A stretch of 63,961 nt of DNA, filler included, from an uncultured bacterium (GTDB lineage: Bacteria > CAYJOG01), in assembly GCA_964371695.1 (NCBI GenBank). It is 4 parts of 4 records of this genome, joined end to end, with 100 filler letters (N's around TTAATTAATTAA, not from the genome) between each part and the next. Parts side by side here need not be neighbours in the genome. Positions count along the whole stretch, not along the records: positions 32,476 to 48,343 come from CAYJOG010000015.1; 3 more parts are not named here. The stretch is one strand, 5' to 3'. Made by a program: the position numbers and the translations under genes. This document shows positions 757 to 62,202 of the stretch, in pieces. The notes under the pieces were generated by a model. It did no database searches and was not told the DNA's origin. It saw only the letters and a program-made list of their open reading frames with translations. The first letter of the stretch is position 1. Each line of letters starts with the position of its first letter.

Positions 757-760
757 GGGG

Positions 761-1300: not shown

Positions 1301-1357
1301 GACGATGCCATTGTAAAGGCTTGTCGTGAAAGTGGTGAATGTCGTTTTCAGGCGGCA

Positions 1358-2113: not shown

Positions 2114-2208
2114 GGCCGCATTATGCCGCCAACAAAATCCCGCACCCGGAACCTTTTATCTCATGCGACCGTTACTATAAAAAGCGCAGGCTTTCCCCGG
2201 AGGCGACC

Positions 2209-3927
2209 ATGCAGACCCCGTTGGTGATTTTTCAGGTGCAGGGCATCACCTGCGGCCATTGTGTTTCCGTCATCCGCCACACGCTGCGGGGACTGCCTGG
2301 CGTAAGACGGGTAGAGGTACACCGCCGCACGGGTGTGGTGAAGATGTGGGCAGAGGGCTCCGCCCCCACGCTGGAGGCCCTCAACGCCCTGCTGCAACCC
2401 CAAGGTTATGCCGCCACGAAAATAACAGCCGCACCGCAGCAGGCCACGCCCGCCGTGAGCCACCCCTCGATGGAGCAGGTGATGCTGGCGGCGTTTGGTC
2501 TTTTGATGGTGTTGCTGGTGTTGAAAAACCTGGGGCTGGACCAGACCACCAGCGGCATTGGCGCGGACATGGGCCTGTGGGCCGCGGCCGGTGCGGGGTT
2601 GCTGGCGTCGCTCAGCACCTGCATGGCCTCGGCAGGGGCGCTGGTGATGGCCATGGCCCGCCGCCACGGCGAGCTTTCGCCCCACGATGGCCTGCGGGGA
2701 CTGGGGTTGCCCCTGGGTCTGTTTCACCTGGGGCGCGTGGCGGCCTATGGCGTGGGTGGCGCGGTGCTGGGTCTTTTGGGACAGCGATTGTTGCCCCAGA
2801 GCTGGCTTTTGGCGGCCCTGAGCGTGGGTGTGGGGCTGTTGATGGCGGGTGTGGGGCTGCAACTGGCGGGCCTGTGGCCCCGCCAGTTGACCTTCAATGC
2901 GCCCTGGACGGCGGCCCTTGGCCGCCTCACCGATTACTGCGTGGATGGCGCGCACCCCATGGCCTCGGCGGGTCTGGGGGCGCTGACCTTTTTTCTGCCC
3001 TGTGGTTTCACCCAGTCGCTGCAACTGGTGGCGCTGGGCGCGGCAGACCCCCTGCGGGGTGGGGCCATCATGGCCCTGTTCGCCCTGGGCACGATGCCGG
3101 GCCTGAGCGGTCTGGGTGTGTTGATGGGGGCGGGGGGCCCCCGTGTCTCCCGCGGGGTGGGTCTGGTGGGGGGCATGCTGGTGGTGGTGATGGGACTGGG
3201 CAACATCCGGGGCGGTTTGGTGATGCTGGGTCTCGCGCCGCCGCCCCTCATGGCTTCGGCCCAGGCCGCGCCCCCCGCCCGGCCCGTTCTGCAAAACGGC
3301 CAGCAGGTGGTGGACATGCGGGTGCAGGGCCTGCGCTACATCCCCAGCCGCTTCGCCGTGCAAAAGGGCGTGCCGGTGAAATGGCGCATTCACGCCGAGG
3401 AAGCCGCCGGTTGCGCCCGTGTGCTGGAGGCCCCGGCCCTGGGGCTGCGCCGGTTACTGGGCCAGCAGGAGACGGTCATCACCTTCACGCCGAAAAAAAA
3501 CGGAGAGACACCGTTTTTCTGCAGCATGGGCATGACCACGCCCGGCGCGGCTTTTCTGGTGGGTGATCAGCCAACAGCCAGACTCGCCGACCCCGCCCGC
3601 ACCCCGGCCCAGGCCACAGCGGTGAAAAAGAAATCTAAATACCCGCCCACCGCCACGCAGCGCCGCAAGGCCCGCCTGCTGTGGGGCGGCACGCTGGTGC
3701 CCAAAGAATTCATGGTGCAAAAAGGCGTGCCCGTCACACTCACCATCCAGAGCGACTTCACGCCCTTTGGCTGCCTGTCGGGTTTCGCCATTCCGGATTT
3801 GAATGTGATTCAGGCGGTGAAAAAGGGAAAAACCGATGTCACGTTCACGCCGCACAAGGTTGGGAAATTCGCCATGATGTGCCACATGGAAATGATCCAT
3901 TACGGCACGCTGGAAGTCACACCATGA
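2209..3927 (+). CDS. HMA domain + DsbD_2/TauE-like membrane domain + two cupredoxin-like domains (copper handling)
   Basis: N-terminal GITCGHC; multiple TM helices with LPCG; C-terminal GC...CSMGM and GC...CHMEM cupredoxin-like motifs; coupled to the Cu-ATPase. Confidence 0.82.
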
Positions 3928-6186: not shown

Positions 6187-6351
6187 TCAGACATGAGCCA
6201 AAACCATTTTCTTTTGGTAGTGGGGGGGGGGGGGCCCCCNNNNNNNNNNNNNNNNNNNNNNNNNNNNNNNNNNNNNNNNNNNNNNNNNNNNCGCCCCCCC
6301 CCCGCCCCACTAAAACCGATTCCAATTTAAAAAAGCGCGAATTGGAATCTT

Positions 6352-9178: not shown

Positions 9179-9464
9179 GACCGGGCGCGGCCAGTTTACG
9201 CCCGTCGCTGTCGAATCGGAATCAGGGCTTTATATAAAAAATTCGAGTTTGGTTTTTTGTCTCAAGGCGGGGGGGGGGGCGCCCCCCCCCCCGGGGAGAG
9301 AAAAATTATTTTTTTTGGGGGGGGGGGCCCGCCCCCCCGCGAAANNNNNNNNNNACCCCCAAACAAAATTGGGGTGTGGGGGGGGGCCCCCCCCCCCCCC
9401 CCGCCTCAAGCAAAGAAAAACACCACTGTATTTGAGTAAAAAAAGTGACTGGCCCGAACCCAAG

Positions 9465-16338: not shown

Positions 16339-16438
16339 NNNNNNNNNNNNNNNNNNNNNNNNNNNNNNNNNNNNNNNNNNNNTTAATTAATTAANNNNNN
16401 NNNNNNNNNNNNNNNNNNNNNNNNNNNNNNNNNNNNNN
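16339..16438. other. Artificial contig linker (N-run with TTAATTAATTAA)
   Basis: Six-frame stop spacer at 16383-16394; same linker at 32420-32431 and 48388-48399. Confidence 0.95.
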
Positions 16439-32375: not shown

Positions 32376-32475
32376 NNNNNNNNNNNNNNNNNNNNNNNNN
32401 NNNNNNNNNNNNNNNNNNNTTAATTAATTAANNNNNNNNNNNNNNNNNNNNNNNNNNNNNNNNNNNNNNNNNNNN

Positions 32476-34817
32476 ACACCCGTCACCAGCCCCACACTCT
32501 GGCTGGCCACGGCATCAAATCCACCCGGCGTTGTGCCCACGCTCACCACATAGTCCGTGACGCCGCTCTCGGCATCAGTGGCCGCAGACCAACTGGCGCT
32601 CACCGTGGTGGTGCTGAGCTGAAAACTGCCGCTGTCCGTCAGCGCGCTCACCGCGCTTGGGGCGGTGATCTCCATCATGATGCCGTCGGTGCTCGCGATG
32701 CTGCTGGTCAATCCCGCACCATTGATCGCCGCCACATTGATGTAATAGGTGGTGCCGTTTAATAAAAACATGGGGCCGATGGCAACGCCCGTGACAAGAC
32801 CCACGCTCTGGCTGGCCACGGCGTCCGTTGCGCCGGGTGACGTGCCCACGCTCACTTCATAACCCGTCACGCTGCTTTCGCCGTCACTGGCGGGTGACCA
32901 ACTGGCGCTGAGGTAGGTGGCGCCGGTGGTGTAGCTGCCGCTGTCGGTGAGCGCGCCCACGGCAGAGGGGGCCGTGGTGTCTACCATGATGCCGTCCGTG
33001 CTGCTCACAGAGCCGGTGAGGCCCGCGTTGTTCACCGCCACCACGTTCACGTAATACGTCACGCCATTGGTGAAACTGCCTGCAATGGCCGCAGCCGTCG
33101 CCAGTCCCACGCTCTGGCTGGCCACGGCGTCTGTTGCGCCGGGCGACGTGCCCACGCTGACCTCATAACTGGCGATGCCGCTCTGGGCGTCGGTGGCGGC
33201 GGCCCAGCTGGCGCTGAGGGTGGTGGTGCTGGTCTGATAACTGCCGCTGTCGGTGAGTGCGCCCACGGCGGTGGGGCCAACGGTGTCCACCATGATGCCG
33301 TTGGTGCTGCTGATAGAGCTGGTGAGACCCACGCCGTTCACCGCTGCCACGTTTACGTAATAGGTCACGCCGTCGCTGTAGCTGGCCACGATGGCCGCGC
33401 TGGTGGACAACCCCACACTCTGGCTGGCCACGGTGTCGGTTGCGCCGGGTGACGTGCCCACGCTGACTTCATAACTGACGATGCCGGTTTCTGCGTCCGT
33501 GGAGGCGGTCCAACTGGCGCTGATGGTGGTGGAGCCAGTCTGAAAACTGCCGCTGTCGGTGAGTGCGCCCACGGCGGCGGGGGCGGTGGCGTCTACCAAT
33601 ATGCCGTTGGTGCTGCTGATGCTGCCCGTGAGGCCTGCGCCGTTGATGGCCGCCACATTGACGTAATAGGTGACGCCGGTGGTGAAAGTCCCTGCGATGC
33701 CCGCGCCGGTGACAAGCCCCACACTCTGGCTGGCCACGGCGTCCGTCGCGCCGGGGGTTGTGCCCACACTCACCTCATAACTTGTCACGCTGCTTTCGCC
33801 GTCACTGGCGGGCGACCAACTGGCGCTCACAGTGGTGGTGCTGGTTTGGTAACTACCGCTGTCAGTGAGCGCCCCCACGGCAGCGGGTGGGGTGGTGTCC
33901 ACCGTGATGCCGTCGGTGCTGTTTATCGAGCCAGTGAGTCCTGCTCCGTTGATGGCCGCCACGTTGAGGTAATAGGTCTGGCCCTGAATGTACCCCCCCG
34001 CAATTCCCGCACTGGTGACCAACCCCACACTCTGACTGGCCACAAAATCTGACCAACCGGGGGCTGTGCCCACGCTGACTTCATAAAAAGCGATGCCGCT
34101 CTCTGCGTCTGTGGCGGCTGTCCAACTGGCGCTGATGGTGCTGGTGCTGGTTTGATAACTGCCGCTGTCGGTGAGCGCCCCCACTGCGCCGGGGGCGCTG
34201 GTTTCCACCGTGATGCCATCGGTGGTGATGGCGCTGCCGGTGAGTCCCGCGGCATTGACCGCCGCCACACTCACGTAATAAAAGGTGCTGCCGACATAGC
34301 TGCCCGCTATGGCCACACCCGTCACCAGCCCCACGCTCTGGCTGGCCACGGCGTCAAACCCACCCGGCGTTGTGCCCACGCTTACCACATAGTCCGTGAC
34401 GCCGCTCTCAGCATCTGTGGCCGCAGACCAACTGGCGGAAACGGTGGTGGTGCTGGTTTGGAAACTTCCGCTGTCTGTGAGTGCGCCCACCGCGCCAGGG
34501 GCGGTGGCGTCTACCAATATGCCGTTGGTGCTGCTGATGCTGCCCGTGAGGCCTGCGCCGTTGATGGCCGCCACATTGACGTAATAGGTGACGCCGGTGG
34601 TGAAAGTCCCTGCGATGCCCGCGCCGGTGACAAGCCCCACACTCTGGCTGGCCACGGCGTCCGTCGCGCCGGGGGTTGTGCCCACACTCACCTCATAACT
34701 TGTCACGCTGCTTTCGCCGTCACTGGCGGGCGACCAACTGGCGCTCACAGTGGTGGTGCTGGTCTGATAACTGCCGCTGTCGGTGAGCGCCCCCACGGCG
34801 GTGGGGGGTGTTGCGTC
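32476..34817 (-). repeat. Intragenic tandem repeat, period ~306 bp, at least 8 units
   Basis: Recurrent AVGALTDSGS..SASW..YEVSVGT.PG..YYVNVAA.N.AGL; unit starts at 34817 and 34511. Confidence 0.92.
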
Positions 34818-37766
34818 CAGGAAAAAGTTGTCCTCCACGGCAAAAGCCGATGACAAAAATCCGGTGTTGTCCACCGCCTGCACGCTCCAGTAATAGGTCA
34901 CGGCGCTGGCCCCGGCGCTGAGTGTGACCGCATGGCTCAGCGCCTGCCCCATGTTGCCCGGCCCGGCGGCGATTTTGGCGCTCACAATTTCATTGCCGCC
35001 CGGCGTGGTGCCCACCCGCAGGTTGTAGGTGAGCAGCGCTGCGGGTGTCTGTGCGTCACTGGCGGCGGCCCACTCAAGCTTCACACTGCCGCTCACACCG
35101 TCCGGCTCTGCGGTGAGTGCCGGTGTGGCTGGTGCATTGTTGGCGGGGTTGAGGTTATTGACATACACCCGATTGGCGACGCTGTTGCCGGCTTTGAGGT
35201 AGTCCATATCCCCGTCCCCGTCCGTGTCGCCCAGCGCCAATCCCTCGGAGGCCTCGGATTCCACGCTGGTCCATGCCAACGTGAAGGTGTTGCCGCCGTC
35301 GTTGCGGTAGACACGATTGGTTCCGCCGCTGTTGATGACCACTTGGTCCAGATCCCCGTCGCCGTCGTAGTCTCCCCAGGCAATGCCGGTGGTGGGGTCT
35401 GATTCACTGCTTGACCAGATGAGGGTGAAGGTGCTTGCACCATCGTTGCGGTAAACGCGGTTGGGTTGGTTGAGGTTCCCAACCAATTGGTCCAGGTCGC
35501 CGTCGCCGTCGGAATCCCCCCAAGCCACGGATAGGGTGTTATCCGTCTCGGTGCTGCTCCACACCAGCGTGAAAACGCCGCCGCCGTCATTACGGTAAAC
35601 ACGGTTGGCCGTGGTGGTGTCGTTGCCTACCAATTGGTCCAGGTCGCCGTCGCCGTCGTAATCCCCCCAGGCCACCGACTTGGTGTTGTCGCTTTCCACA
35701 CTGGTCCATGCCAAGGTGAACGAGCCACTCACATTCCAATCGTTGCGGTAGACGCGGTTGGCCCCGGTGTTATTGCCCACCAATTGGTCCAGGTCCCCGT
35801 CGGCGTCATAGTCCCCCAGCGAGATATTAAAGGTCTGTTCCGACACCCCAGCCGTCCATGCCAGGGCAAAAGAGCAAGTGCCGTTGTTGAGGTAAACCCG
35901 GTTGGGCCCTCCCCCGTTGGCAATTACATGGTCCAGATCCCCATCATTGTCAACGTCCCCCCAGGTTGAGCCATAGGAGGCGTCCGTTTCGACGCTGGTC
36001 CAAACCGAGGTAAACGCGTTGCCACCGTCGTTGCGGTAAACACGGTTAATGGCGGCGTAGTTGGCAACCAATTGGTCCAGATCCCCGTCGCCATCACAAT
36101 CGCCAAGGCTTGCGGCGGTGGATCCTTCGGGCCCTGGGCCAGACCAAACACTTGAGAATTCAGACAGATAAAGAAAACCATCCGACTGAACGAAATAGGA
36201 GTTGCTGACGTTATCAATGGCTTTGACTTCAAACCTGTAGTTGTGTCCACTCACCAATGAGCCAGTTGATAAATTTAAAGTGGTTGAAGCCGCGTTGCTG
36301 GTGAATCCGAGTGTGTAGGAGGCAGAAGTGGTGTCGTAGAGGGCATAATCGTATCTGGCCAGGCCGCTTCCCGCGTCGGTTGAAACCGTCCAGTTCGCGT
36401 CCAGAGAAATGCTGTTGATGATGGTGTCCAGGTCTGCCCCAGTGCCGTCATTCAGCGTGAAAGCCGATGGGTTGGTGGTGTCCAGCAGCACGGTGAAGCC
36501 ACCCGTGTTGGTGGTGCCCTGACCGTTGTAACAGGTGGCGTTCGCCGCTCCGTTTTGTGTGGAGCCGCCGCTGAAAGAATAGGTTGTGGAACTGTAGGGG
36601 TTGCTGGTGTCATCTCCCGATCCGCCGGTGATGCCTGTCAGGGCAGGGAAGTTCACTTTCTGTATCCCCGTTTCACCGTCTGTGGCGGTGGCGCTCACGA
36701 TGAAGTTTCCTGTGCCAGCGGTGTTGTAATACGCCGTGGTTCCTGTGGTGAAAAGAAAATCACTGGCGGGTGCTTCGGCAATGCCGCTGACGGAGCAGGC
36801 GGGTGCGGTGACGTCGTTTCCGCCGTCTGTGGTGCGAAAAACACCAGCTCCTGAACTCACCGCCCAGCAATTGGTTGAATTTATACAGGAAACGCCGTTT
36901 ATAGAACCAGCTACGCCTTGATGGAAAAAATTAACACCATCGTTTGTTTTTCCAATTGTCCCGCCACCTGCCGCCCAATAACAAACCGTACCAGAAGGGC
37001 ATTCCAAATCAAGAACAGATGCACCGGGATGTGTCCCCACCATTCCCCAGGCTGAGCCATCGGTTGTTTTTTTGACCTGATACGATCCACAGGACCCCAG
37101 GAATGAATAACAGGTCGTGGTGCTTGAACAAGCCGTTGACTCTAAACACGGGGATCCCAGATTGGTTTCAGACCATGTGCTGCCATTGGTTGTTTTGCCG
37201 ACCCAGCCAGCACTGGTAGAGTAGTAACAGGTGAGAGTATCTGGACAAGAAATGGTGTTGGGCATATTTACTATTCCAGAGGTTAGCGGAGACCAGTTGG
37301 TGCCATCTGTGGTTTTAAGCACATTCATATCTCCACCTACCGCATAACACACGGTGGTGGAAGGACAGCTAATGTCCTCAAAGTTTTGGGTAACCACAGA
37401 GGTTTGTGTGCTCCAGTTTGTCCCGTCGCTGGTTTTGATGATGGTGCCAGTCTGCCCCACTGCGTAACAAACTGTGGTGGATGGGCACGAAACTGCATAA
37501 AGATAGTTTCCGGTGGGAGATGTTTGATTGGTCCAGGTGGAGCCATTGGTCGTTTTTCTGATGAATCCTGTCTCGCCAACCGCATAGCAGGTCGTGGTAG
37601 CAGGCACGCAGGAAATTCCATATAGCCATCCTGCTGCGGAATCAATTGTCCACCCGGCCTCAGCGGGCCTTGAAAAGAACACCACGCCCGCCAGCACACA
37701 AAAAGCAAAAAACGAATGGAATCGCCTTCCCCGCCCAAAACCCCGATGGTCCAGCTTTTGGTTCAT
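32476..37766 (-). CDS. Giant secreted modular surface protein (Cys-containing propeller, FG-GAP propeller, FN3-like repeats), 3'-truncated
   Basis: Signal peptide ending PAEA; seven SC....CY..G...KT.DG repeats; seven GD.DGDGDLD repeats; at least eight ~102-aa repeats. Confidence 0.88.
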
Positions 37767-38187
37767 GTGTGTGTCGATGCCTGCTGCGTGATGAAGCCTT
37801 GATACCCCCCGATTGGGGTTGTATAAGCAAAAAATAAATAAAACGGGGGGCAAGCACCCAACCTGCCGGACGAGCGAAAATCACGCGCTTAATGCGGCAC
37901 ATCCCCCAAAAAAGAGGGTTTACCGGTACCGATGCGGGTTAGAGTTTTCACAGGCCACTGTTTTTCGCGGTATTTTGGGTCTGGGTGCGTTGGGATGTTA
38001 AGGGGAAATGGTACACCCATGTCTTTTTCAAAAACAGGCCCAACCGAAAAATTTGGGTCAAAAAACCGACGAAATGCGGCGGCCCGCACACCACGAGCAG
38101 GCGCGCCCACGCTCAGCCCCTGCACCGCTGCCGCAGTGCGCAGCGCACTGGTCAGGCGGTCCAGACTGTCATGCCCCTCTCGTGCCG

Positions 38188-38868
38188 CTACGCCCCAAAT
38201 GGTTTTTTCGGTATGGGCAAAGGGGGTTGGGACTTGATGAACAGGTGGGGGCACACTGCGCCGCAGGTTTTGGCGTGTTTGCATCCGCTGCAGATGCGCT
38301 GGCGCAAAACAAAGGCCGCCACCACCGCCACCGCCGAAACCAGGATCATGTAAAAACCCGGCCCGGGCATGCCCAGCGTGCGGAAGTTGCCAATCGCCCC
38401 CATGCCCAGCAGGGTGGGGGTAAAGGGCGCCACGTTCACCGGGGCCTTGGGGTTCAACTGGTGGCCAAACTGGTACATCCAGAAATACATGGACCCCAGA
38501 AAAACAGACGGAAACAGGAGGGCGGGCAAAGAAAACATCTTGGCGTAGCGTTTGCCCGGCAAAAACACCCCCACCATGGTGACAAGGCCAATGCCCGACA
38601 CGCCGTAAACCGCCATGGCCCTTTCCAGCTTGGCGGCTTCATCCAGCCGGGCCATGCCGATGTAGTGGTTCAGGATGTTGATTTCGGTGATGTCTCCGGT
38701 GACCTTGTTCAGGTAAACGGCCATCACCAGACCGTTGGGATATTGGGGGGCCTGCAGATACCAGCCCCAAATCGGAAAGAAATAAGCCGCAGCGTAAAGA
38801 AGGCACGCGAGCAGGGCCAGAAAAACCACTGTCCACCGCAGGAACCGGTCTTGAGAAGAGATGTGCAT
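38188..38868 (-). CDS. nosB: Clade II nos cluster membrane protein NosB-like
   Basis: APQYPNGL and INILNHYIGM motifs, four TM segments, AAAGGAGA RBS, last gene of the nos cluster. Confidence 0.8.
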   Translation of the reverse strand: MHISSQDRFLRWTVVFLALLACLLYAAAYFFPIWGWYLQAPQYPNGLVMAVYLNKVTGDITEINILNHYIGMARLDEAAKLERAMAVYGVSGIGLVTMVGVFLPGKRYAKMFSLPALLFPSVFLGSMYFWMYQFGHQLNPKAPVNVAPFTPTLLGMGAIGNFRTLGMPGPGFYMILVSAVAVVAAFVLRQRICSGCKHAKTCGAVCPHLFIKSQPPLPIPKKPFGA

Positions 38869-38890
38869 TGTTTCTCCTTTGAATGAATGC

Positions 38891-39829
38891 TCAAACAACA
38901 TTGGACCGCCTGAAAACCAGGAAACCCGTGGCGGCGCAAACCAGACCCAGCAACAGGGGCCAGACAATGGCCCAGGCCAGCACGCCGCCCCGGCCCAGGA
39001 CATCGGTCAGGGCGTAGGAAAGAGGCCCCAGGATGGAAAGCTCCGGGTCGAACACCGCAATCGCCGCCGTGCGGAAAGCCTGCACCGGATTGAGCAGCGC
39101 CAGGGTCATCACCATTTCAGCCTGCACCATCTGGCGGATCATCACCCCCAGCAAGAGGCCATCCACCAGCGCCTCCAGCGACAGCCACACCCCAAAGGCC
39201 ATGCCCAGGGCGGATTCCTGTGTGGCGCTGAGTATGGAAATCAGCATGGCCATGCCCAGAAAACAGACCACCATGGACGCCGTGAGGCCGGAGTAATACA
39301 CCACCATGGACCACGGCACCCCCCCGCCCCGCAACTGCTCATAAAGCGCCCCGGCCCAAAGCGCCATCACCAGGGGGGTGGCCATGGCGACAAGCCCACC
39401 CCCAAACCGGCCCCAGTAATAACCCGACAGCGAAACCGGCAGCGACAGCATGTACTCCCACACGCCCGATTCCCGGTCTCCCACCAGGGTTCTGGCGGTG
39501 GTGATGAGGATGAAAATGGGCAGGATGACCATGCTGGCCTGAATGAAGGTGAGCAGAAGCCGACCCAGGCCATGAAACCCCAGCACCTGGGATTCCGCCA
39601 AGCCAAACATGAAAAACAGACCCATCAAAAGGGCGAAGCCCAGGCAATAAAGAAGAAACCAGCGCGCCAGCAGGGTCTCTCTCAGTTCCAGGCTGAAAAA
39701 CTCCCGCAGCGTGGAGCGGCGGGGGCGGGGAGCGATGGGGGCAGGAATGTTAATTGTCCCCTCCGGCTTCTGTGCCACCCTCAACCGGATAGAGGTGGTC
39801 GTGGCGTTGCGCGCCTTTGGAACCCACAC
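38891..39829 (-). CDS. nosY: ABC permease NosY
   Basis: DRESGVWEYMLSLP and LNPVQAFR motifs, six TM segments, nos context; start codon uncertain. Confidence 0.85.
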   Translation of the reverse strand: MWVPKARNATTTSIRLRVAQKPEGTINIPAPIAPRPRRSTLREFFSLELRETLLARWFLLYCLGFALLMGLFFMFGLAESQVLGFHGLGRLLLTFIQASMVILPIFILITTARTLVGDRESGVWEYMLSLPVSLSGYYWGRFGGGLVAMATPLVMALWAGALYEQLRGGGVPWSMVVYYSGLTASMVVCFLGMAMLISILSATQESALGMAFGVWLSLEALVDGLLLGVMIRQMVQAEMVMTLALLNPVQAFRTAAIAVFDPELSILGPLSYALTDVLGRGGVLAWAIVWPLLLGLVCAATGFLVFRRSNVV

Positions 39830-40238
39830 GTTTCAAGAGGATTTTTTGCGCCTGAGCGAAGGTGAGTTTTCCGTTTCTGTCGGGACCGATGCCGTAATCC
39901 ATGGGGGTTTTCAGGCCGTCTGTATACCGGGCCTGTTCTGCCTTGAGCCACGTTTTCCCGTCCTGCGGACTCAGCACATAAAGCACCGCGTTTTTAAGGG
40001 CGGGCGCGGCCTGCTTTTTGGCCAGGGCGCAGCCCAGGTCATCAAAAAAATGAATCTGCGCGCCCGGCCCCACCCACTGGGCGGCAAAACGGCGCTCGGT
40101 GATGGCCATGCGGCAATGTTCGCAGGTGTCCCTGCCCCAGTGGGGCGGCCCCACGCGCATCTCCCCCACAGAACACCCCTGCAAAAAAATCGCGGCAAGC
40201 GTCGCGACAAAAAGAGCAGGCCAGATTTTCCGGTTCAT
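39750..40238 (-). CDS. nosL: Copper chaperone lipoprotein NosL
   Basis: LQGC lipobox, CEHCRMAI, FDDLGC and TPMDYG motifs. Confidence 0.9.
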   Translation of the reverse strand: MNRKIWPALFVATLAAIFLQGCSVGEMRVGPPHWGRDTCEHCRMAITERRFAAQWVGPGAQIHFFDDLGCALAKKQAAPALKNAVLYVLSPQDGKTWLKAEQARYTDGLKTPMDYGIGPDRNGKLTFAQAQKILLKRVGSKGAQRHDHLYPVEGGTEAGGDN

Positions 40239-41119
40239 GCCTGTGGCCGCCCTTCCGCGCCCGGCGCGGGAGAAATTTTCACATCCCGGAGCAGTCCGCC
40301 ATAGCGGGTGAGCAACGCAAAAAAACGGTAGCGGTCGGCTGCGGGAATCTGGCCGGTCCAGTGGAGGGGTTCCTTTTCTTCAAGCCCCCACTCGTGAAAC
40401 GCTTTTTTCATGGTGTCCACGCCCGGCGTCACCCTCAACGACACGGCCATGGGGCTGACGGCGCCCGTCAGGCCGCCATCCACCGCCACGATGTCGTCCA
40501 TCACCAGTGTTCCCTGGTCCAGTTCCACCACCCGGTTGACCAGACCGGCGATTTCGTCCACCCGGTGCGAGGCCAGCAGCATGGTGGTGTGTCGGGGGGT
40601 CTCGCTGAGCTGGCGAAAAAACACCGCCCGCGATTTGGGGTCCAGGTTGGCCCCCGGTTCGTCCATGATCAGAATGGGCGGCTGCCGGGCAATGGCGGCG
40701 GCGATGAGCAGTTTTTGCTTCATGCCCCCCGAAAGCGCGCTGAAACGCCGTTGTTGCAGGCTTTGCAGGTCCAGACCAAGAGGCCCGGCAACGGCTTCGA
40801 TTTGTTGACGTGAGACCTGGCACACGCGCTCCATGGTGCGCAGATAATCCGCCACCCGCACCCGCAGGCCCGGCGGCAACTGGGGGACAAACCCGATTTG
40901 CCCAAGCACCTGGGGGCGGTGCCCGCGCGTGTTGAGGCCATTGACCGTGATGTCGCCGGTGAACTGGTACAACCCCAGCAGGCAGCGGATGAGCGTGGTT
41001 TTGCCAGAGCCGTTTTGCCCCACCAGGGCAATGCGATCGCCCGGGCGAATCGTCAGGTCCAGGCCCTTGAGGATTTCGTCTTTGCCAAAAAACTTTCTCA
41101 GCCCACGTACTTCAATCAT
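40235..41119 (-). CDS. nosF: ABC ATPase NosF
   Basis: GQNGSGKT, LSGGMKQK and MDEP motifs; ATGA-coupled to nosD and nosL. Confidence 0.9.
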   Translation of the reverse strand: MIEVRGLRKFFGKDEILKGLDLTIRPGDRIALVGQNGSGKTTLIRCLLGLYQFTGDITVNGLNTRGHRPQVLGQIGFVPQLPPGLRVRVADYLRTMERVCQVSRQQIEAVAGPLGLDLQSLQQRRFSALSGGMKQKLLIAAAIARQPPILIMDEPGANLDPKSRAVFFRQLSETPRHTTMLLASHRVDEIAGLVNRVVELDQGTLVMDDIVAVDGGLTGAVSPMAVSLRVTPGVDTMKKAFHEWGLEEKEPLHWTGQIPAADRYRFFALLTRYGGLLRDVKISPAPGAEGRPQA

Positions 41120-42435
41120 GCGCCGCGAGTCCTTTGCAGAGGCCGGGGAAGGGTGGGGGTGTCCAGCCGGGGGCTGGCGTCCTCCAGCAGCAGAAGCGGC
41201 TCGGTGATTGGCACAAGACGTTCTATCAGATTAATGAGCAACAACACCGGCGACCCCCTGAAAAACATCGCCGAAGGATGCACCCCAGTCAATAAATCTC
41301 CATATTTCCTGGGTGCGTGAGGGGTGTCGCCAAACTTGTCGTGGTTGCGGTCAAACCCTTCGTAACTGTCCCAGTAATTGCCATTCCACACGCCGGGCGA
41401 GGTGTGTCTGCTTTCGGTGTCCACGTCGGCAGTGTTGGATTTCAGCACGTTCTGCTCAAAAAAATTGCCCGGCCTGTCGTTGGCCAGCAAAATTCCGGTG
41501 GCGTTGAAAGCCACCGTGTTTTGTCTGATGCGGTTCACCGCCCCCGTGTGCCAGGGCGAGTTGTCCACCAGAATGCCCGTGTTGGAATCCAGAATGGTGT
41601 TGTGCCGCACAAAAACGCCAGAGGTTTCCTTCAGACCCAGGCCAATGCCAGAGGCCCCGGTGGACTGCCGAATGTCATTGTCCACCACCCGGATGTTCTG
41701 GCCGTACATGAGGAATATCCCCACCTGATTGTTCCTGAAAAAGTTGCGGCGCAGGGTGACGTTTTCGGAATACATGGAATGAACGCTGTAGCGGGAGCCT
41801 TGGCCGTGATTGTCTTCCAGCAGCACGTTGCGGGAATACCAAACCACGGCGTCTCTGGAACGCCGCCAGTGGTTGCCCCGCAGGGTCACGCCGTTGCTGG
41901 ACCACACCCGGATGGCGTCTCCGCGCAGGGTGATGTCCCGGAACATGCTCTGAACGGTGCAGTTTTTCACCAAAACGTTCTGGCTGTCGCCGATGTCAAT
42001 GCCAAACAGGGTGTTGTGTATGCGCAGGCCCTGCAGGACGACATCCCGCTGGCTTTGCACCGAGACACCGGCGTCCACGTCGGGATTGGACTGGCCCGAT
42101 CTGCGCACGGTCAGGTTGCGCAGCGTGACGCCGGGGGCCTTCACCCAAATCACGGTGCCCTTTCCGTTGCCTTCAATCACGACACCCTTTTCTCCCTGTA
42201 TGACCACCTGGGGCGCGAGGATTTCAATAGGCCCGTGATAAACCCCGGCCTTCAGCCGCAGGGTTTCTCCGGGCATCAGACGGGAAATCCGTTTCTGGAA
42301 AGGTCCGGTCTGAATGCGTACGCCCCAGCCGCCCGCCATGCCGCCGTCAGCCGCCAGAAGAGGGCACCTGCCCGCTAAAAGCAGGCAGGTGTAAATACCC
42401 GTCAATAAAGATTTATTCAGTCTTTTTTTCGCCAT
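41116..42435 (-). CDS. nosD: Nitrous oxide reductase maturation protein NosD
   Basis: Beta-helix repeats, RGDAIRVW, RYSVHSMYS, GNYWD.Y.GFD...D.FGD. Confidence 0.93.
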   Translation of the reverse strand: MAKKRLNKSLLTGIYTCLLLAGRCPLLAADGGMAGGWGVRIQTGPFQKRISRLMPGETLRLKAGVYHGPIEILAPQVVIQGEKGVVIEGNGKGTVIWVKAPGVTLRNLTVRRSGQSNPDVDAGVSVQSQRDVVLQGLRIHNTLFGIDIGDSQNVLVKNCTVQSMFRDITLRGDAIRVWSSNGVTLRGNHWRRSRDAVVWYSRNVLLEDNHGQGSRYSVHSMYSENVTLRRNFFRNNQVGIFLMYGQNIRVVDNDIRQSTGASGIGLGLKETSGVFVRHNTILDSNTGILVDNSPWHTGAVNRIRQNTVAFNATGILLANDRPGNFFEQNVLKSNTADVDTESRHTSPGVWNGNYWDSYEGFDRNHDKFGDTPHAPRKYGDLLTGVHPSAMFFRGSPVLLLINLIERLVPITEPLLLLEDASPRLDTPTLPRPLQRTRGA

Positions 42436-42492: not shown

Positions 42493-44874
42493 CTACCAGG
42501 TCGCCAAGTAATCCACGATTTTCTCCGCTTCGGCCTTGGTCACGCCCTGCTTGGGCATCTTGATGCCGAACTTTTTGATCAGCGGGGTGATATAGGGGTC
42601 CTCGTAATATTTTTCCGGATCCATGATCCATTGGACCAGCCAGGCTTTTTCGCGCCGGGTGGTGAGGCCGACCAGGTTGGGGCCGCCGGCTTCCTTGCCT
42701 TTCTGGTGGCAGGCCATGCAGCCATATTTGTTGAACTCGGCCTCGCCGGGGGCTTTGGGGGCTTCCTCTTCGGCAAACTCCCACGCAGCCAGCCGGGCGG
42801 TGGCAGCCTGGGCTGCGGCGTGGTTCCTCAGGCGGCTTGTTTCAGCCAGACTGTCTGGCCGCACCGACAACAAACCAAGGCCCTTTGTGGCGAAGGGGCT
42901 GTCTGCCGGGCGGGTTTTGAGGGGAAACAGGCCAGACTGGCTGGCGGTGACCTTCACCGTGGCGGTTTCGCCCGGTGAAAACACATTCATGCCGTTTAAC
43001 CCGGAGACAAAAAAGGAAATGGCAGCGTTGGGGTCAGTCTCGGTGTTGGTCAGGTGAAACACCACTGTCTGGCCCTGCTTGGCGTTGACGCGCCTGGGGT
43101 TGATGCCCTGGCGGCTGAGGGTGCCAAACACCTCCACCGAAGAACCAGACTGCACCACGCGCTCCTTGCCCGCCTCGGTGGCGCTGGCCGACCGCGCCAT
43201 GGTGTAGGGGTCCGTTCCCGGTTCGTAGGTGTCTTGGGGTTTCAGGGTATTTACGTCAATGCACTGGGTGTAGTGAGGCTCGCCCATGGGCAGGGGCATG
43301 TCATAAAGCAACCGCATTTTTTCGCCCGAAACGGAAATGAGCTGATGGTTCTGGGGGTGCAGCGGCCCCACGTGCGAGAAACGGTCAATGGCCAGTTTGT
43401 TGAGCGCGATCACATAACGGCCTCGTGGGTCCGTGGAGTCGCCCTGCATGGAGACCAGATGGCCGATGTTGTAATGGACCGATTGTTTGCCGAGTATCTT
43501 GAGGGTTTCATAGTTCCATTGCACCACCATGGAATCAATGTAGACAGAGGTGTAGGCGATACCTTTTTTGGCGTCAAACTGAGTGTGCAGCGGCCCCAGA
43601 CCAAGCTGCACCTGACCGTGCAGGGCTTTTTTGTAATCCAGGATGGGCAGGCCGTAGGGGTCTGTTCCGGCAAAGTCCCTGGCTTTGATGAGGGCCTTGA
43701 TTTTGCGGATGTCGAAAATGCTGGCGTGGGTGTCCAGCTTGCCCGCCACCACGATGAACCGTCCGTCGGGGCTGACATCAGAGCCATGGGGTGACTTCGG
43801 CTCTGGCACCAGGAACATCAAACCCTCCTGAATCGCCACTTCCATGGGAATCACGTTGTGGCCGCGCACCTTGATGGCCTTGCCTTCGGCCACCACTTTT
43901 TCGGCCTTTTTCCAGTCGATGATGTGCATGTAGTCCATGTCGCGGGTGGAGCAGCCCGCCTCATAGGGGGGGCGTCCCTGTTTGCTGCCGCCCACGTAAC
44001 GCTCGGCGCAAAAGGAATTGGTGAACGAAAATCCGTAGCTCTCTTTTTTGCCCGCATCGCTGAGATCCTGCACATAGGGCGGCGCGATGAGGGTGAAGGA
44101 TGCCTCCCGATCAATGCGTCCCTTCTGACGGTCAAATTTGTGGTAGGTGATGCCGCCTCGGTAGTACTTGTTGAAATACCCCTGTTCCAAGGGTTTGTAG
44201 GAGTGATCCACCGTGGTGGGATATTGCGAGCCTTCAATGACATATTCGGTGTTGGGCGTGACAAACGCACCGCCGTGGTCGCTGCGGAAAATGGGGTTGT
44301 TCACGATTTGTTTGGTTTCCAGATCCCGCAGGTCCACCACAAAAATGCGGGGGTTGGCTTTGTCGTTGATGAAGGCGAACTGGCCGTCATATTTGCCGTC
44401 CGTCTCTGAAAACGCTGGATGGTGCGTGTCGCCCCAGTTTGTCTTGACGCCGTCAATGTCTCCCTCACGGGCAAGCTGGCGCGATTCTTCAGTGAAATGA
44501 AACCCTGCTGATGAATCCGGCGCAGAGGTGGGAATGTATTTGACAATGCGCATGGAGGGAACGAGATAGGCGATGAGGGATGCTGCCTGACCGCCCGAAT
44601 TGAGGCAGAGAAATTCTTCCTTGTCATTTTTGGGATAGGTGGAAAAAGCGGCAACCATGTCGTCGGTGGCAAGGTTGCGGGCTTTGGCCACGCTCAGGAG
44701 GTCTCCCTTGTGGCCGGTGGCTTCGAGGCCACCCTGGCCGCCTTTTTGGCAGCCGGAGCCAAAGGCGAGCAGCGCCGTGGCGCTCAGCAATAGTCCTATT
44801 TTCAGGCGGGTTTTGGCCGGGCGGCTTGGCCCCTGGCCAGACCGGTGAAACAAAAAACGGTTTGAGAGAATCAT
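42493..44874 (-). CDS. nosZ: NosZ paralogue B: intact CuZ propeller, CuA-less cupredoxin domain, C-terminal cytochrome c
   Basis: Lipobox FGSGC; DTHH, SDHGG, KSPHG, GPLH, NIGH and EPH (seven His); CuA motif absent; CMACH heme motif at 42706-42720; ATG 44874 overlaps the upstream TGA. Confidence 0.92.
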   Translation of the reverse strand: MILSNRFLFHRSGQGPSRPAKTRLKIGLLLSATALLAFGSGCQKGGQGGLEATGHKGDLLSVAKARNLATDDMVAAFSTYPKNDKEEFLCLNSGGQAASLIAYLVPSMRIVKYIPTSAPDSSAGFHFTEESRQLAREGDIDGVKTNWGDTHHPAFSETDGKYDGQFAFINDKANPRIFVVDLRDLETKQIVNNPIFRSDHGGAFVTPNTEYVIEGSQYPTTVDHSYKPLEQGYFNKYYRGGITYHKFDRQKGRIDREASFTLIAPPYVQDLSDAGKKESYGFSFTNSFCAERYVGGSKQGRPPYEAGCSTRDMDYMHIIDWKKAEKVVAEGKAIKVRGHNVIPMEVAIQEGLMFLVPEPKSPHGSDVSPDGRFIVVAGKLDTHASIFDIRKIKALIKARDFAGTDPYGLPILDYKKALHGQVQLGLGPLHTQFDAKKGIAYTSVYIDSMVVQWNYETLKILGKQSVHYNIGHLVSMQGDSTDPRGRYVIALNKLAIDRFSHVGPLHPQNHQLISVSGEKMRLLYDMPLPMGEPHYTQCIDVNTLKPQDTYEPGTDPYTMARSASATEAGKERVVQSGSSVEVFGTLSRQGINPRRVNAKQGQTVVFHLTNTETDPNAAISFFVSGLNGMNVFSPGETATVKVTASQSGLFPLKTRPADSPFATKGLGLLSVRPDSLAETSRLRNHAAAQAATARLAAWEFAEEEAPKAPGEAEFNKYGCMACHQKGKEAGGPNLVGLTTRREKAWLVQWIMDPEKYYEDPYITPLIKKFGIKMPKQGVTKAEAEKIVDYLATW

Positions 44875-47201
44875 TTGGAGGCTCCTTTTTCGCTCAGAAC
44901 CTTCTTGGCGCGAAGGCCGGCGTCTGCGGCTTTCACCTGATACTGGAACATCTGCTCGGCCCAAAGCTTGGCTTCAGACCATTTTTTGTCACGCACGGCG
45001 GCGTCCAGTTTGGGCCTCAGTTTTTCTATTTCCTCAAGTTGCTGCACCGCGTCGTTCACGAAATTGGCCGCACGGGGGTCGGACTGGTAATTGTTTTTCT
45101 TCAGCCACGCCACCACGGAATCGATCACCGCCTGGGTGTCTTTGATGACCTTCATTTTTTCATCAAAAATCTTTTTGGCTTCTTCAGGCGCCATCTCTTC
45201 GGTTTCAAATTTTTCCGCAGTCGCTTTCCAGTTTTTGGGTTTCACCAGCAGATAACCCATCATCTCAAGGTGCAGGGCCGAGCAAAACTCGGTGCAGTAA
45301 TAAGGGAACACGCCTTCGCGGCCTGCCTTGAAGGTGACCGAGGCCACCTTGCCCGGTTCCCAACTGCTATGCACGTTGTAGGCGCTCACCGTAAAGCCGT
45401 GGGTCTGGTCTTTGGCCTGCTCCAGGTTGGTCAGGTGAAAAGTCACCGTGTCGCCCACTTCCACCTCCACGATGTCCGGCACAATGTGGCTGCGGATCAC
45501 CGTGCCGAAGACATGCACCCGGTTGCCTTTTCTCTCCACCCGCTCGTTGCCCGGCATGGTGCGGTAAGGCGCGGTTTTTCCGATGCGGGGGTTGGTGCCG
45601 ATGGGGTAACTGTCCACCCCCTTGATCAGTTTCACGCTGAGTCCCACTCCGTTCAGGTTCGTGGCCTGGGGAACAGCGCCTTCATAAAGCCGCACCAGCT
45701 TGTCTTTCTGAATTTCAAACAGCAGCGGGTTCATGGGTTTTTGGGGCCCCACATTGGGCAGGTGCCCCGCGGGGCGGGTGTTCAGGACAATCAGATAACT
45801 GCTTTGCGCAGTGGCGGTTTCTTCCTGCGGAATCACCAGCCTGCCGCCGGGTTCCTCCAGGGTCACGGCTTCGGCCACTTGCCCGCTCTTCAGGTCCAGC
45901 CGCACCACCTTGCCGGGGTCACGCACCGAAACAAACGCCTGACCGTCGCCGGTGAAGGCGGTGTCCACCGTCGCGCCGCCCACTTTTACCTGCCGCAGCA
46001 CCTTTGCCCCTGCGGGTGCGGTGGGCACGCCGAAATCATCCTTTTCCGTGGCCAGTGCAGCGGCGAGTTTTTCCAGGTCCACCAGTGTCACCCTGTCGCC
46101 TGTTTCGTGGGTGATGACAGCCTGCTTGCCATCGGGCGACACCCGGATGCCAGAGGGGAGGGGAAGCGTCTCCAACTGAAAAAGCCCCCCTGCGGCCACC
46201 AACCCGGGCAGGTCTGCAAACGGGTGACCTTTAAACCGCTGGGTGGTTTTGGCCACAGCCGACTGAGCTTTGGCGAGGTCCACCACGTGCAGCACGCCGG
46301 GGGCGTCCGCCGGACAGTCTTCCAGTCCGGGATAGGCTCCCTTTTTCACGCGGCAGGCCGACACCGTGAGCACCAGATTTTTGGAGTTTTCCCTGCCGGT
46401 GGCGGTCTGGATTTGCAGATAGGGCGGCAATGCGGCGGTGAAGGAATTCTTTTTGTCAAATCGCCCGGCGTGGCCCTCTTCGGCGGCGTATTTCCAGAAG
46501 GTCAGGCCGCCCCTTAAACCGGCCGCCCCGCCCTGTTCCGGGTCGGCCCATTTAAGCCCCGGTATCTGGGGAATGTGCGTGGTCTGCACCACATAACGGG
46601 TGTCGGCGTCCACCGCCACGTCGTTGCCGGAGTTGGAAAAAACGGGGTTGGAGAGGATTTCCTTCACCTCGAAATCATCCAGGTGCATCACGGCAATCCT
46701 GCCGTTGGCCCCGTCGGCCACAAACAGGGCCTTGCCGTCATAACGGCCTGCGGTCTCTGACATCGCGGGCAGGCCGCTGTCGCCAAAGTCATAGGAAATC
46801 TCGTCTCTCGCGCTGGCCGCCAGCACAACCTTGCTCTCGTCGTCAAAGCCGAAGCCCTGCCACGGTTCGGGTGTGAAAAGACCCGAATATTTCAGAATGC
46901 GCATGGAGGGCAGCCCCACCATGGCCAGGCGGCCTGAACTGCCCGTGGTGAGCATCACCATGTGGGTGTCCAGCCCGCCGCTGGGCACAAAGGTTTTCAG
47001 GGCCGCCAGTTGTTCCTGCTCGTCCAGCCCCCTTTGCTCGGCGATTTCGAACAGTTCACCAGACAGGCCCATGGACCTTTCTTCCTTCTTCTTCAAGTCC
47101 CTTTTTTTGTCTGCCCTGAAGCATCCCGCGCCAAAAGCCAGCACCACAAGCAAGGTGGTGGCCAGGAGCGGGGTGCGAATGACTGGAAGTTTTGAATTCA
47201 T
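44871..47201 (-). CDS. nosZ: NosZ paralogue A: CuZ-less propeller, intact CuA domain, helical C-terminal extension
   Basis: Lipobox GAGC; NosZ-type PSMRILKY, PEPWQGFG and SET.G.YDG segments; THGF (His at 45399-45401) and CTEFCSALHLEM (45261-45296); no CuZ histidines. Confidence 0.9.
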   Translation of the reverse strand: MNSKLPVIRTPLLATTLLVVLAFGAGCFRADKKRDLKKKEERSMGLSGELFEIAEQRGLDEQEQLAALKTFVPSGGLDTHMVMLTTGSSGRLAMVGLPSMRILKYSGLFTPEPWQGFGFDDESKVVLAASARDEISYDFGDSGLPAMSETAGRYDGKALFVADGANGRIAVMHLDDFEVKEILSNPVFSNSGNDVAVDADTRYVVQTTHIPQIPGLKWADPEQGGAAGLRGGLTFWKYAAEEGHAGRFDKKNSFTAALPPYLQIQTATGRENSKNLVLTVSACRVKKGAYPGLEDCPADAPGVLHVVDLAKAQSAVAKTTQRFKGHPFADLPGLVAAGGLFQLETLPLPSGIRVSPDGKQAVITHETGDRVTLVDLEKLAAALATEKDDFGVPTAPAGAKVLRQVKVGGATVDTAFTGDGQAFVSVRDPGKVVRLDLKSGQVAEAVTLEEPGGRLVIPQEETATAQSSYLIVLNTRPAGHLPNVGPQKPMNPLLFEIQKDKLVRLYEGAVPQATNLNGVGLSVKLIKGVDSYPIGTNPRIGKTAPYRTMPGNERVERKGNRVHVFGTVIRSHIVPDIVEVEVGDTVTFHLTNLEQAKDQTHGFTVSAYNVHSSWEPGKVASVTFKAGREGVFPYYCTEFCSALHLEMMGYLLVKPKNWKATAEKFETEEMAPEEAKKIFDEKMKVIKDTQAVIDSVVAWLKKNNYQSDPRAANFVNDAVQQLEEIEKLRPKLDAAVRDKKWSEAKLWAEQMFQYQVKAADAGLRAKKVLSEKGASK

Positions 47202-48341: not shown

Positions 48342-48443
48342 ACNNNNNNNNNNNNNNNNNNNNNNNNNNNNNNNNNNNNNNNNNNNNTTAATTAATTAAN
48401 NNNNNNNNNNNNNNNNNNNNNNNNNNNNNNNNNNNNNNNNNNN

Positions 48444-48792
48444 CGTTGATGGTGTTCACGTTGGGCATGGCCACATAACCCTGCTCGTTGGCGTCGGGGT
48501 GGCTGGGGTCATGCACCAGCCGGGGGGGGCTGGGGTCTTTCTCGATTTTGATCACCTTCACGCCTTCGCCCACGCCACGGGGCTGGGCCCCCGGTTCCAG
48601 CGGCAAAAACGGAAAACGCCGCTCGGTGTCGAGGCTGTGGGTGCTGAACACCGCCAGCAGGCGCTTGAAGGGGCCGCCCTCTGGCGTGCGGGTGGTGTTG
48701 ACGTTGGCGATGTTGGCCGCGATCAGGTCCATGTGCAGGCGCTGGGCGCTGAGGCCACTGCCCGCGATGTCCATGGCTGAAAAAATGCTCAC
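48444..48792 (-). CDS. flgC: Flagellar basal-body rod protein FlgC (truncated by linker)
   Basis: SGLSAQR..MD.IAANIAN.NTTR and DPSHPDA...GYV.MPNV motifs. Confidence 0.95.
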
Positions 48793-48863
48793 GTGGCCCC
48801 CTTTTGATTGTTTTTATTTTTCGGACTGCCTTTGGTGCGGCGCAGGCATCCCGCCTGCGTTTT

Positions 48864-49295
48864 TTACCTTGCCGTGGACTTGATGAGATCTTTCAGGCCG
48901 GTGAACCGGCGGCTGACAATTCGGGAATAAGCCAGATACTGCTGGGTGTTCTTGGCCTCTTCGGCCATTTCCAGGTCAATGTCCACGTTGTTGCCGTCGT
49001 TGCGCCAGGTGGTGTGACCTTCGCGATAAACCGTGGGCGAGACTTCGTTCCAGGGGGTGCGGGCGTTGATGGGAAAATGCCCCGGATGGGTGAAAAAACC
49101 GGGCAGGCGCTCGGCCTCGTCGGCCTCCAGCGCGTGGCGCAACTCGGTTTCAAAACTCACCCGCTTGCGTTTGTAATTGGGGGTGTTGACGTTGGCGATG
49201 TTGTCGGAAATCGCCGCCTGACGCAGGTGCGACGCATCCATGCCCTTGGTCAGGGCCGTCATCACCTTGCTGTCATAAAGTTTTTGAAGAATCAC
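48864..49295 (-). CDS. flgB: Flagellar basal-body rod protein FlgB
   Basis: RQAAISDNIANVNTPNYK and RNDGNNVDIDLEM motifs. Confidence 0.95.
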   Translation of the reverse strand: MILQKLYDSKVMTALTKGMDASHLRQAAISDNIANVNTPNYKRKRVSFETELRHALEADEAERLPGFFTHPGHFPINARTPWNEVSPTVYREGHTTWRNDGNNVDIDLEMAEEAKNTQQYLAYSRIVSRRFTGLKDLIKSTAR

Positions 49296-60868: not shown

Positions 60869-62202
60869 GTCGTCTCCTCGCTCACCACGCCGTCGAGCAA
60901 TGTGGCGCGCCCCCCCGCAAAGGTGTGGCGGGGCCTGCCGCTCAGCCGCCAGCCGATAAAAGGCGTGTTCTGTGATTTGCTCTTGATGCAGGTGCTGTCA
61001 AACGTGAACTCGCCGGTGCTGAGCACGGTGATGTCCGCCACGTCGCCGGGCCGCCAGCGGTTAAAGGGCAGGCCAAACCGCAGGGCTGGTTTCTCACCCA
61101 GCAACTGCACAAACTGCCCCAGGCTGAGGCGGCCCGTGCGCACAAAGTGGTGATACATCAGCGGCACGGCGCTTTCCAGGCCGATGATGCCAAAGGGGGC
61201 GTCGGTCATGGGGGCGTCTTTTTCAAAGGCGGCGTGGGGCGCGTGATCGGTGGCGACAAAATCGATGCCGCCGCGCACCAGACTCTCGGCCAGGGTTTTC
61301 ATTTCTTTTTCGCTTCGCAGGGGCGGGGCCATCTTGAAGTGCGTGTCGTAAGACCGGACGCAACCGGTGTGCAGCAGCACGTGGTGCGGGCTTACCTCGG
61401 CGCTCACGTCCGCGCCACGGCTGCGGGCCTCGCGCACCAGATCCACCGCCCGCTGGGTAGAGACATGGGCCACGTGCAGGCGGCTTTGTTCGGCCTCGCA
61501 CAGCCACACGTCCCGCGCCACGGCCACCCACTCGCTCACGGCGGGAATCCCCTTCAGCCCCAAATCAAAACTCGCGTCGCCTTCGTCAATCACGCCTTCG
61601 CCCTTGAGTTTTTTACACTCGCAGTGGCTGATGATGAGCGCGCCGAATGTTTTGGCGTAGCTCAGGGCAAAGCGCATNNNNNNNNNNAGAGCCGTTCCCT
61701 GAAAGGTAGACCAGTCCCGAATCTGGGCGTCTTCAATCCATTCGCCGTCGTCGCTGAAGGCCACGGCCCCCGCCTGAAGCAGGGCGTGGAAACTGGTGAG
61801 GTGCTCGCCCTTCATGCCCATCGTCACGGTGGCCACGGGATACATCCGCCCCAGGTGGGCCTCTTTGGCGCGGCGCAGCACATAATGCACGGCTTCGGGC
61901 TGGTCGATGGGCGGGCTGGTGTTGGCCATGGCCACCACCTGACTGAAGCCCCCCGCCGCCGCCGCCGCCAGACCGGTGCGAATGGTCTCTTTGTGGGACT
62001 GCCCCGGCTCGCGGAAATGCACGTGGGCGTCGGTGAGGCCCGGCAGCACCACATCGCCCCCCACGTCCAGCACACGGTCGGCCCTGGCGGGCATGTCTGT
62101 GCCCACCGCCAGAATGCCCGACTCGTCAAACAACACGTCCGAGAACACCGGCTCGCTGTCCAGGTTCAGCAGCACCCGACCGCCTTTAAGGAGTGTCCGC
62201 AT
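60865..62202 (-). CDS. pyrC: Dihydroorotase (contains a small N gap)
   Basis: [26 protein letters not shown] and ATDHAPH motifs. Confidence 0.95.

Follow-up and report, generated by a model that had tools for sequence, protein, structure and literature searches.

Adjacent nosZ-like genes that divide the CuA and CuZ sites of nitrous oxide reductase, with a predicted cytochrome c on the CuA-less chain

Nitrous oxide (N2O) has, to our knowledge, a single well-established biological sink, the nitrous oxide reductase NosZ, which has so far been regarded as a homodimer whose two active sites are identical. In the functional dimer, each CuZ centre lies ~10 Å from the CuA centre of the partner chain and ~40 Å from that of its own chain, according to passages in PMC13685413. 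A 63,961-nucleotide stretch of DNA (filler included; hereafter, the window) from an uncultured bacterium (GTDB lineage CAYJOG01; GenBank assembly GCA_964371695.1) carries two NosZ-like genes, nosZ-A followed by nosZ-B (here A and B), arranged head to tail on the minus strand. The nos genes occupy one 15,868-base contig (window 32476–48343) of a metagenome-assembled genome (MAG) of 672 contigs. A carries the ligands of CuA only; B carries those of CuZ only and is fused to a cytochrome c domain. No further NosZ beyond A and B was found in the genome, which is 83% complete.

One described system is cNosZ, found in Wolinella succinogenes and other Campylobacterota: a clade II NosZ to which a monohaem cytochrome c is fused (Simon et al. 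2004, cited in PMC8139620). Each of its modules, from propeller and cupredoxin to three-helix tail and class I cytochrome c, has a homologue in A or B, and the two systems may also share a Sec-type cluster context without nosR, although no search aimed at nosR was made at the present locus. The two differ in that cNosZ holds all modules on one chain (11/11 proteins read HHHHHHH at the CuZ columns and HCCHM at the CuA columns and have one CxxCH), whereas here the modules are split over two genes, with the haem on the CuA-less B, the CuA on the haem-less A, and tail helices 2–3 missing from B. The nearest complete relatives are the tailed clade II NosZ (~760 amino acids) of Dechloromonas, Accumulibacter, Azonexus and Magnetospirillum (Rhodocyclales and others), which end in the same three-helix tail as A but have both copper sites on the product of one gene and lack a fused haem; the Accumulibacter enzyme is 71% identical to A in the cupredoxin and 65% identical to B in the propeller. 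At three loci from some Rhodocyclaceae and Dechloromonas (L055, L057 and L076), two complete tailed nosZ copies stand within ~8 kb of each other; an A/B pair could arise from unsplit duplicates such as these.

Two further systems depart from canonical NosZ in other ways. The clade III, lactonase-type NosZ (NF052460) is likewise a recently recognised departure, but its model, with a cut-off of 700 bits, gives only 74.9 bits to A and 109.3 bits to B, and nosDFY are kept here, whereas clade III clusters lack nosDFY in the account given in parts of PMC13685413. A DPANN 'nosZ-like' protein resembles A in that the CuA motif is kept and the CuZ His are absent, and it adjoins a His-rich protein of the NosZ family in two genomes (PMC10936187, in excerpt). 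It differs in being short and in branching between Cox2 and NosZ and, as described there, in lacking a full propeller, a partner with a cytochrome and the nos maturation genes. The parts of the present pair are all familiar, but no published account came up of the two-gene, one-active-site form that carries the haem on the chain without CuA: full-text literature searches, whose coverage left out most subscription journals, returned no description of a split or heterodimeric NosZ.

A is a 776-amino-acid NosZ paralogue (window 44871–47201; this and all features below lie on the minus strand) that scores 392.6 bits against TIGR04246, the Sec-dependent NosZ model, under the cut-off of 625, and is by this score a relative rather than a member. 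It reads H/C/C/H/M at the CuA columns and GLGSDRL at the CuZ columns, with 0/7 of the CuZ His, and has no CxxCH. Alignment and a structure model place a seven-bladed propeller, with all seven CuZ His replaced, at 45567–47063, followed by a cupredoxin (45234–45566; PF00116, 28.2 bits, cut-off 22) with a full CuA site (H601, C636, C640, H644 and M647). The last ~120 residues (44874–45233) form a C-terminal tail of three modelled helices (672–702, 709–737 and 741–774; mostly at ~90 in predicted local distance difference test, pLDDT), also identified by homology to the tails of clade II NosZ and cNosZ. The model of A (pLDDT 88.4) reaches target-normalised template modelling scores of 0.84–0.87 to solved NosZ; as modelled, A would keep the seven-bladed propeller and the full NosZ fold.

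The A stop codon (TGA) and the B start codon (ATG) overlap in an ATGA at 44871–44874. With its start taken at the ATG at 44874, B is a 793-amino-acid NosZ paralogue ending at 42493 that exceeds the TIGR04246 cut-off (671.8 versus 625 bits). Its catalytic propeller (43195–44637) has all seven CuZ His in alignment with those of solved NosZ, and a ligand is absent at all five CuA columns. The region 42493–43160, which corresponds to B residues ~572–793 and the stop codon, covers most of what follows the propeller: a ligand-free cupredoxin (42859–43194; beta strands at residues 572–672), to which Pfam gives only a weak Cupredoxin_1 match (residues 585–651, 19.4 bits, cut-off 27); a linker (42751–42858) that a low-confidence model renders as one long helix (residues 675–700); and a cytochrome c domain (42496–42750; PF00034 Cytochrom_C at residues 709–792, 26 bits, cut-off 21.3). 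The last has CMACH (residues 719–723, window 42706–42720), GGPNL and a K-M773-P774 motif (Met773-Pro774 at 42553–42558), and by its CxxCH, distal Met and PF00034 score it is predicted to be a haem-binding class I cytochrome c. Both C-termini are thus built as the initial annotation had described them, B with a ligand-free cupredoxin, linker and class I cytochrome c, and A with a helical tail of ~120 residues without a haem motif. Read by eye, both A and B begin with a hydrophobic N-terminus in which 'FGAG/FGSG' is followed by a Cys and an RR motif is absent. Because neither chain has both CuA and CuZ, neither gene alone is a complete NosZ. The A/B junction was bridged without differences by contigs from 3/4 separately assembled DNA runs of one study.

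The division of ligands recurs in relatives. When 134 proteins were typed by their ligand columns, 23 were A-type, 14 were B-type and 97 were complete NosZ with both sites. The A-type proteins have at most one His at the seven CuZ columns (23/23), all five CuA ligands (22/23, the remaining protein being C-terminally truncated) and no CxxCH (0/23), and in the 14 B-type sequences C719, C722, H723, M773 and P774 are invariant (14/14). A whole-length search with B gave at least 120 relatives, complete NosZ not yet being reached among the matches listed; merged with the earlier B-type proteins, these made a set of 122. All seven CuZ His are present in 121/122 (the remaining protein is N-terminally truncated) and 0–1 of the five CuA ligands in 122/122. 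The initial annotation had left room for B homologues that lack the haem domain, but at least one CxxCH occurs in 122/122 (one in 94, two in 28). A scan of genome contigs for relatives, in which the matches listed were mostly complete NosZ, yielded at least 17 A-type loci from species-representative genomes, and in 17/17 of these a B coding sequence begins 0–43 nucleotides after the A stop, the contig ending shortly after the B start in three.

By record title, the A-type loci belong to MAGs of Bacteroidales, Flavobacteriaceae, Lentimicrobiaceae, Melioribacteraceae, Chlorobiota and one Sulfuricurvum, to which the protein sources add carriers from the Myxococcota and Bacteriovoracaceae; the lineage of the window is a further carrier. 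The window's genome is the sole member of its phylum in a collection of 199,900 species. In an even sample of 401 genomes from the phylum of the Melioribacteraceae carrier, a NosZ match occurred in 135, and a B-type match occurred only in the carrier; the best non-self match to B in this sample is 45% identical, stops at approximately query residue 665 and is without the haem domain. The A/B form is a family trait and not an accident of the window's genome; it is spread widely yet, within at least one carrier phylum, rare.

Conservation was compared in ten A/B pairs that share a contig (45 pairwise comparisons). The mean pairwise identity of the propeller is 45.5% in A and 66.9% in B (A higher in 0/45), and that of the cupredoxin is 82.6% in A and 44.0% in B (A higher in 45/45), such that the fast-evolving part is the propeller in A and the cupredoxin in B. 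A and B are paralogues with complementary degeneration, each conserved in the part that the other has lost. The CuA ligands are invariant throughout the A family, as are many positions of the tail. The A-A and B-B distances are correlated (0.96 and 0.86), and the A family and the B family, each monophyletic (100/100), both split into the same two subclades. Mirror-image conservation is what a heterodimer predicts, and the observed pattern fits. Together with the co-diversification and the ATGA overlap, it amounts to strong indirect evidence from which a 1:1 complex may be inferred.

These data also bear on a B homodimer, raised by the initial annotation as an alternative, in which the haem would replace CuA as the immediate donor to CuZ and A would have a separate function or be decaying. 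B does pass the NosZ cut-off alone and has a predicted redox centre of its own. Against this stand the adjacency of A in 17/17 loci and its translational coupling to B here, the invariance of the CuA ligands and a cupredoxin in A more conserved than anything in B (it is the best-conserved part of the pair), and the co-diversification of A with B; a decaying gene would not keep 83% identity in one domain. In the canonical geometry, the empty cupredoxin of B would moreover sit between haem and CuZ in a B2 dimer. The homodimer is disfavoured on these points and appears very improbable.

Since CuA and CuZ pair across chains, A2 or B2 alone would be without a working pair. Probably, A and B form an obligate heterodimeric NosZ with one live CuA(A)-CuZ(B) pair that is fed through the haem of B. 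Formation of the heterodimer we infer from the gene pair and its conservation; the step from haem to CuA we put forward more cautiously. Under this proposal, gene duplication would have been followed by loss of CuZ in A and of CuA in B, which would have removed one of the two cross-chain pairs and left CuA(A)-CuZ(B) live, with the emptied propeller of A and the emptied cupredoxin of B persisting as scaffold. The C-terminal modules of a cNosZ-like enzyme would have been divided, the three-helix tail going to A and a one-helix linker with the cytochrome c to B. Electrons would most likely enter at the haem of B, with a NosC-like cytochrome (free or fused) before it in other lineages, and would then move by way of the CuA of A to the CuZ of B, the site of N2O reduction.

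Several features of the B family concern the place of the haem in this path. The spacer from G667 to the first haem Cys is 51–58 residues long in 122/122 B-type proteins (52–54 in 103) and has few conserved positions and little sequence conservation; the fixed length suggests a rigid arm of set reach rather than a loose tether. A second cytochrome c follows the first on the same chain in 28/122 B-type proteins (among them L012, L015, L016 and L052, and P0004–P0006, P0009 and P0140). In eight of these dihaem proteins that were compared, the second domain is 35–51% identical to a free cytochrome c whose gene is found near monohaem B, 124–230 nucleotides downstream in 4/8 loci, and which is followed by NosB-like, NosD, NosG-like, NosH-like, NosF, NosL and NosY genes. 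A donor cytochrome fused behind the haem of B argues that this haem is the next station. The fused haem of cNosZ has likewise been assigned the role of electron entry, as stated in passages of PMC8139620. The universality of the domain, the length of the spacer and the fusion of the donor are indirect indications that the haem of B would lie on the electron input path.

A more serious rival than the B homodimer accepts the A:B heterodimer but has CuA of A reduced directly by a soluble cytochrome docked at the tail of A, with the haem of B serving as storage, as a side path or as a structural element. Complete tailed clade II NosZ work without a fused haem (seven typed proteins, dozens of loci), their CuA necessarily taking electrons straight from a soluble cytochrome, and by the canonical geometry the haem of B is tethered at the dead site and not beside the live CuA. 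A haem off the route to CuA is harder to reconcile with a domain present in 122/122 B proteins with invariant ligands and a length-constrained spacer, with the repeated fusion of a NosC-like donor behind it, and with the electron-entry role given to the fused haem of cNosZ in the excerpted text of PMC8139620. Direct reduction of CuA seems rather unlikely, less so than the homodimer.

Other observations weigh against the heterodimer fed through the haem of B. The proposed links of A with B and of haem with CuA come from gene order and sequence comparison. In the canonical dimer geometry, the C-terminus of B leaves from the dead site, and the linker of ~53 residues must therefore carry the haem back to the CuA of A. 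The alignment behind the model of A included complete NosZ, which favours the NosZ fold, and the model of B (from a 14-row alignment; mean pLDDT 62) is too poor to place the haem domain. A complex prediction from fragments (A 545–776 and B 655–793 with haem), run without controls, gave no verdict (0.00 against a mark of 0.32) and counts neither for nor against the pair. In the other 4/8 monohaem loci, no NosC-like gene lies within the stretch fetched, and searches of the window's cluster and of the 83% complete genome with Bacteroidota queries returned no NosC-like or NosH-like donor. All carriers seen are MAGs, and the sequencing runs listed for the source comprise four DNA runs from one sediment study and no RNA run.

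The window's genome does encode other cytochromes. On its contig C69 (L003), a 502-amino-acid membrane-anchored pentahaem protein (757–2265, minus strand), ActA-like by a weak PDB match, has a C-terminal cytochrome c 40% identical to the haem domain of B, and its gene is followed by that of a 196-amino-acid lipoprotein cytochrome c (152–742, minus strand). The two are a possible donor chain for the reductase, offered as a lead only.

Alignment of the C-termini bears on the origin of the divided modules. Campylobacterota cNosZ runs from a CuA cupredoxin through the three-helix tail to the cytochrome c; the tail of A aligns over its full length with that of cNosZ, including a near-invariant WxxQ..QYxVKxADxGLRAK motif, the cytochrome c of B aligns with that of cNosZ, and the linker of B starts where the tail begins. 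The initial annotation had set the helical tail of A against the haem-bearing C-terminus of B. The tail is present on A but is not special to it: many complete clade II NosZ that lack haem end in it too (the seven typed proteins and dozens of loci from Rhodocyclales and others), where it is the normal extension, and being common there it is ordinary, A having simply kept it. A search of the ESM Atlas with the tail of A gave a best score of 0.78, and among the PDB matches no solved NosZ has the tail or a fused cytochrome.

The cytochrome of B belongs to a common family (2080 representatives at E ≤ 0.001 among 1.84 billion), in which a representative of cNosZ length matches the haem domain of B at 39% identity (E 2e-11). 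A tree of 54 cytochrome c domains unites the full sets of 20 from B and seven from cNosZ in one clade (support 98/94), along with 11 short entries, and leaves the other 16 top-scoring domains outside. Of the short entries nested within B or cNosZ, seven were read, six being fragments of B or cNosZ and one (P0387, 208 amino acids) a free-standing cytochrome; a further four short entries in the clade are free-standing cytochromes with signal peptides. A clade restricted to the haem domains of B and cNosZ was rejected (p 5e-5), the cause being the short entries nested inside. Among the control genomes no clade I NosZ passed as an outgroup, and the NosZ trees were rooted on the short forms of clade II. 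In these trees, A, B, cNosZ and tailed NosZ group together to the exclusion of the short forms (100/100). Inside this group, the order (cNosZ,(B,(tailed,A))) has support of 82–91, below threshold, and neither A + B as one clade (approximately unbiased test, p-AU 0.55) nor A + B + cNosZ as one clade (p-AU 0.50) was rejected.

The haem clade and the alignments support a division of a cNosZ-like module set but do not prove the order of events. The partition of modules put forward in the initial annotation is supported to the extent that tail and cytochrome align with those of cNosZ and the haem domains group together. Of the domain trees that it proposed, that of the cytochrome groups B with cNosZ and that of the propeller is weak at depth (82–91). 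A different history, concerning origin only, has B gaining a cytochrome c of the same family independently, so that the modules were never partitioned. The abundance of the class I family (the 2080 representatives), the four free-standing signal-peptide cytochromes inside the clade of B and cNosZ, and the position of haem-less tailed NosZ between cNosZ and A in the propeller trees (at the sub-threshold 82–91) would suit such a gain; the union of all 20 B and seven cNosZ haem domains against 16 others, the coincidence of the start of the linker with the start of the tail, and the two clades that were not rejected would not. An independent gain seems the less likely history.

More tentatively, clade II NosZ may use its cytochrome c in trans, in the manner of CuA. 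In the up-down-up tail, helices 1 and 3 share one direction, which would put the haem of cNosZ far from its own CuA and near that of the partner. With one active site dead, the only useful haem would be the one on the CuA-less chain, hence its retention there. The single helix of B, approximately one tail helix long and with the same end point, would then lie along the tail of A, which would serve as the rail or docking face. Were this true, the A/B pair would be a natural dissection of electron entry into every clade II N2O reductase with a tail or a fused cytochrome.

Directly downstream of B come nosD, F, (L) and Y for maturation, a placement that counts in favour of the A:B enzyme. nosD (41116–42435) is identified by TIGR04247 (351.3 bits, cut-off 300) and a PF05048 match. 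A nosF-like ABC ATPase gene follows (40235–41119; PF00005), its nosF name taken from its position in the cluster. Next is a probable nosL (39750–40238) for a lipoprotein-like protein of 162 amino acids that has no family match and is named by position; it occupies the same place as a gene of locus L014 that matches PF05573 NosL at 22.5 bits (Pfam cut-off 24). Then come a nosY-like ABC-2 permease gene (38891–39829; PF12679) and a gene for a membrane protein (38188–39003) with no Pfam or NCBIfam match, related to an unnamed protein of Bacteroidota-type nos clusters (BLASTP E 3e-9 against L014:15116–15874), which we take to be NosB-like. In one Bacteroidales nos cluster (L011, 17642–19735), a TonB-dependent receptor gene stands between nosD and a NosG-like gene and may be linked to copper uptake. 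Just downstream of the window's cluster, 32476–37853 encodes a secreted protein of more than 1800 amino acids, cut by the contig end, with FG-GAP/VCBS-like 'GDxDGDGDLD' repeats followed by about eight near-identical repeats of ~95 amino acids. Runs of N occur in the window at 6240–6291, 9345–9354, 16339–16438, 32376–32475, 48344–48443 and 61678–61687; because N spacers join separate contigs, neither the flagellar genes at 48388–49295 nor any sequence at positions below 32476 adjoins the nos cluster.

A two-gene, one-active-site form of NosZ would alter nosZ counts. The curated NosZ model accepts B, and A, where seen, is annotated as 'cupredoxin domain-containing protein', 'cytochrome C' or 'hypothetical'. 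One preprint's pipeline drops NosZ hits that are missing any conserved CuZ or CuA residue (bioRxiv 10.1101/2025.06.28.662143, in the part describing the filter); as all residues of both sites are needed, both A and B would be removed. The pair would show cleanly, in a metalloenzyme, how complementary degeneration can follow a duplication. It would also isolate, in one complex, a single path from haem to CuA to CuZ, which could make the electron supply of clade II enzymes and the role of their conserved tail directly testable.

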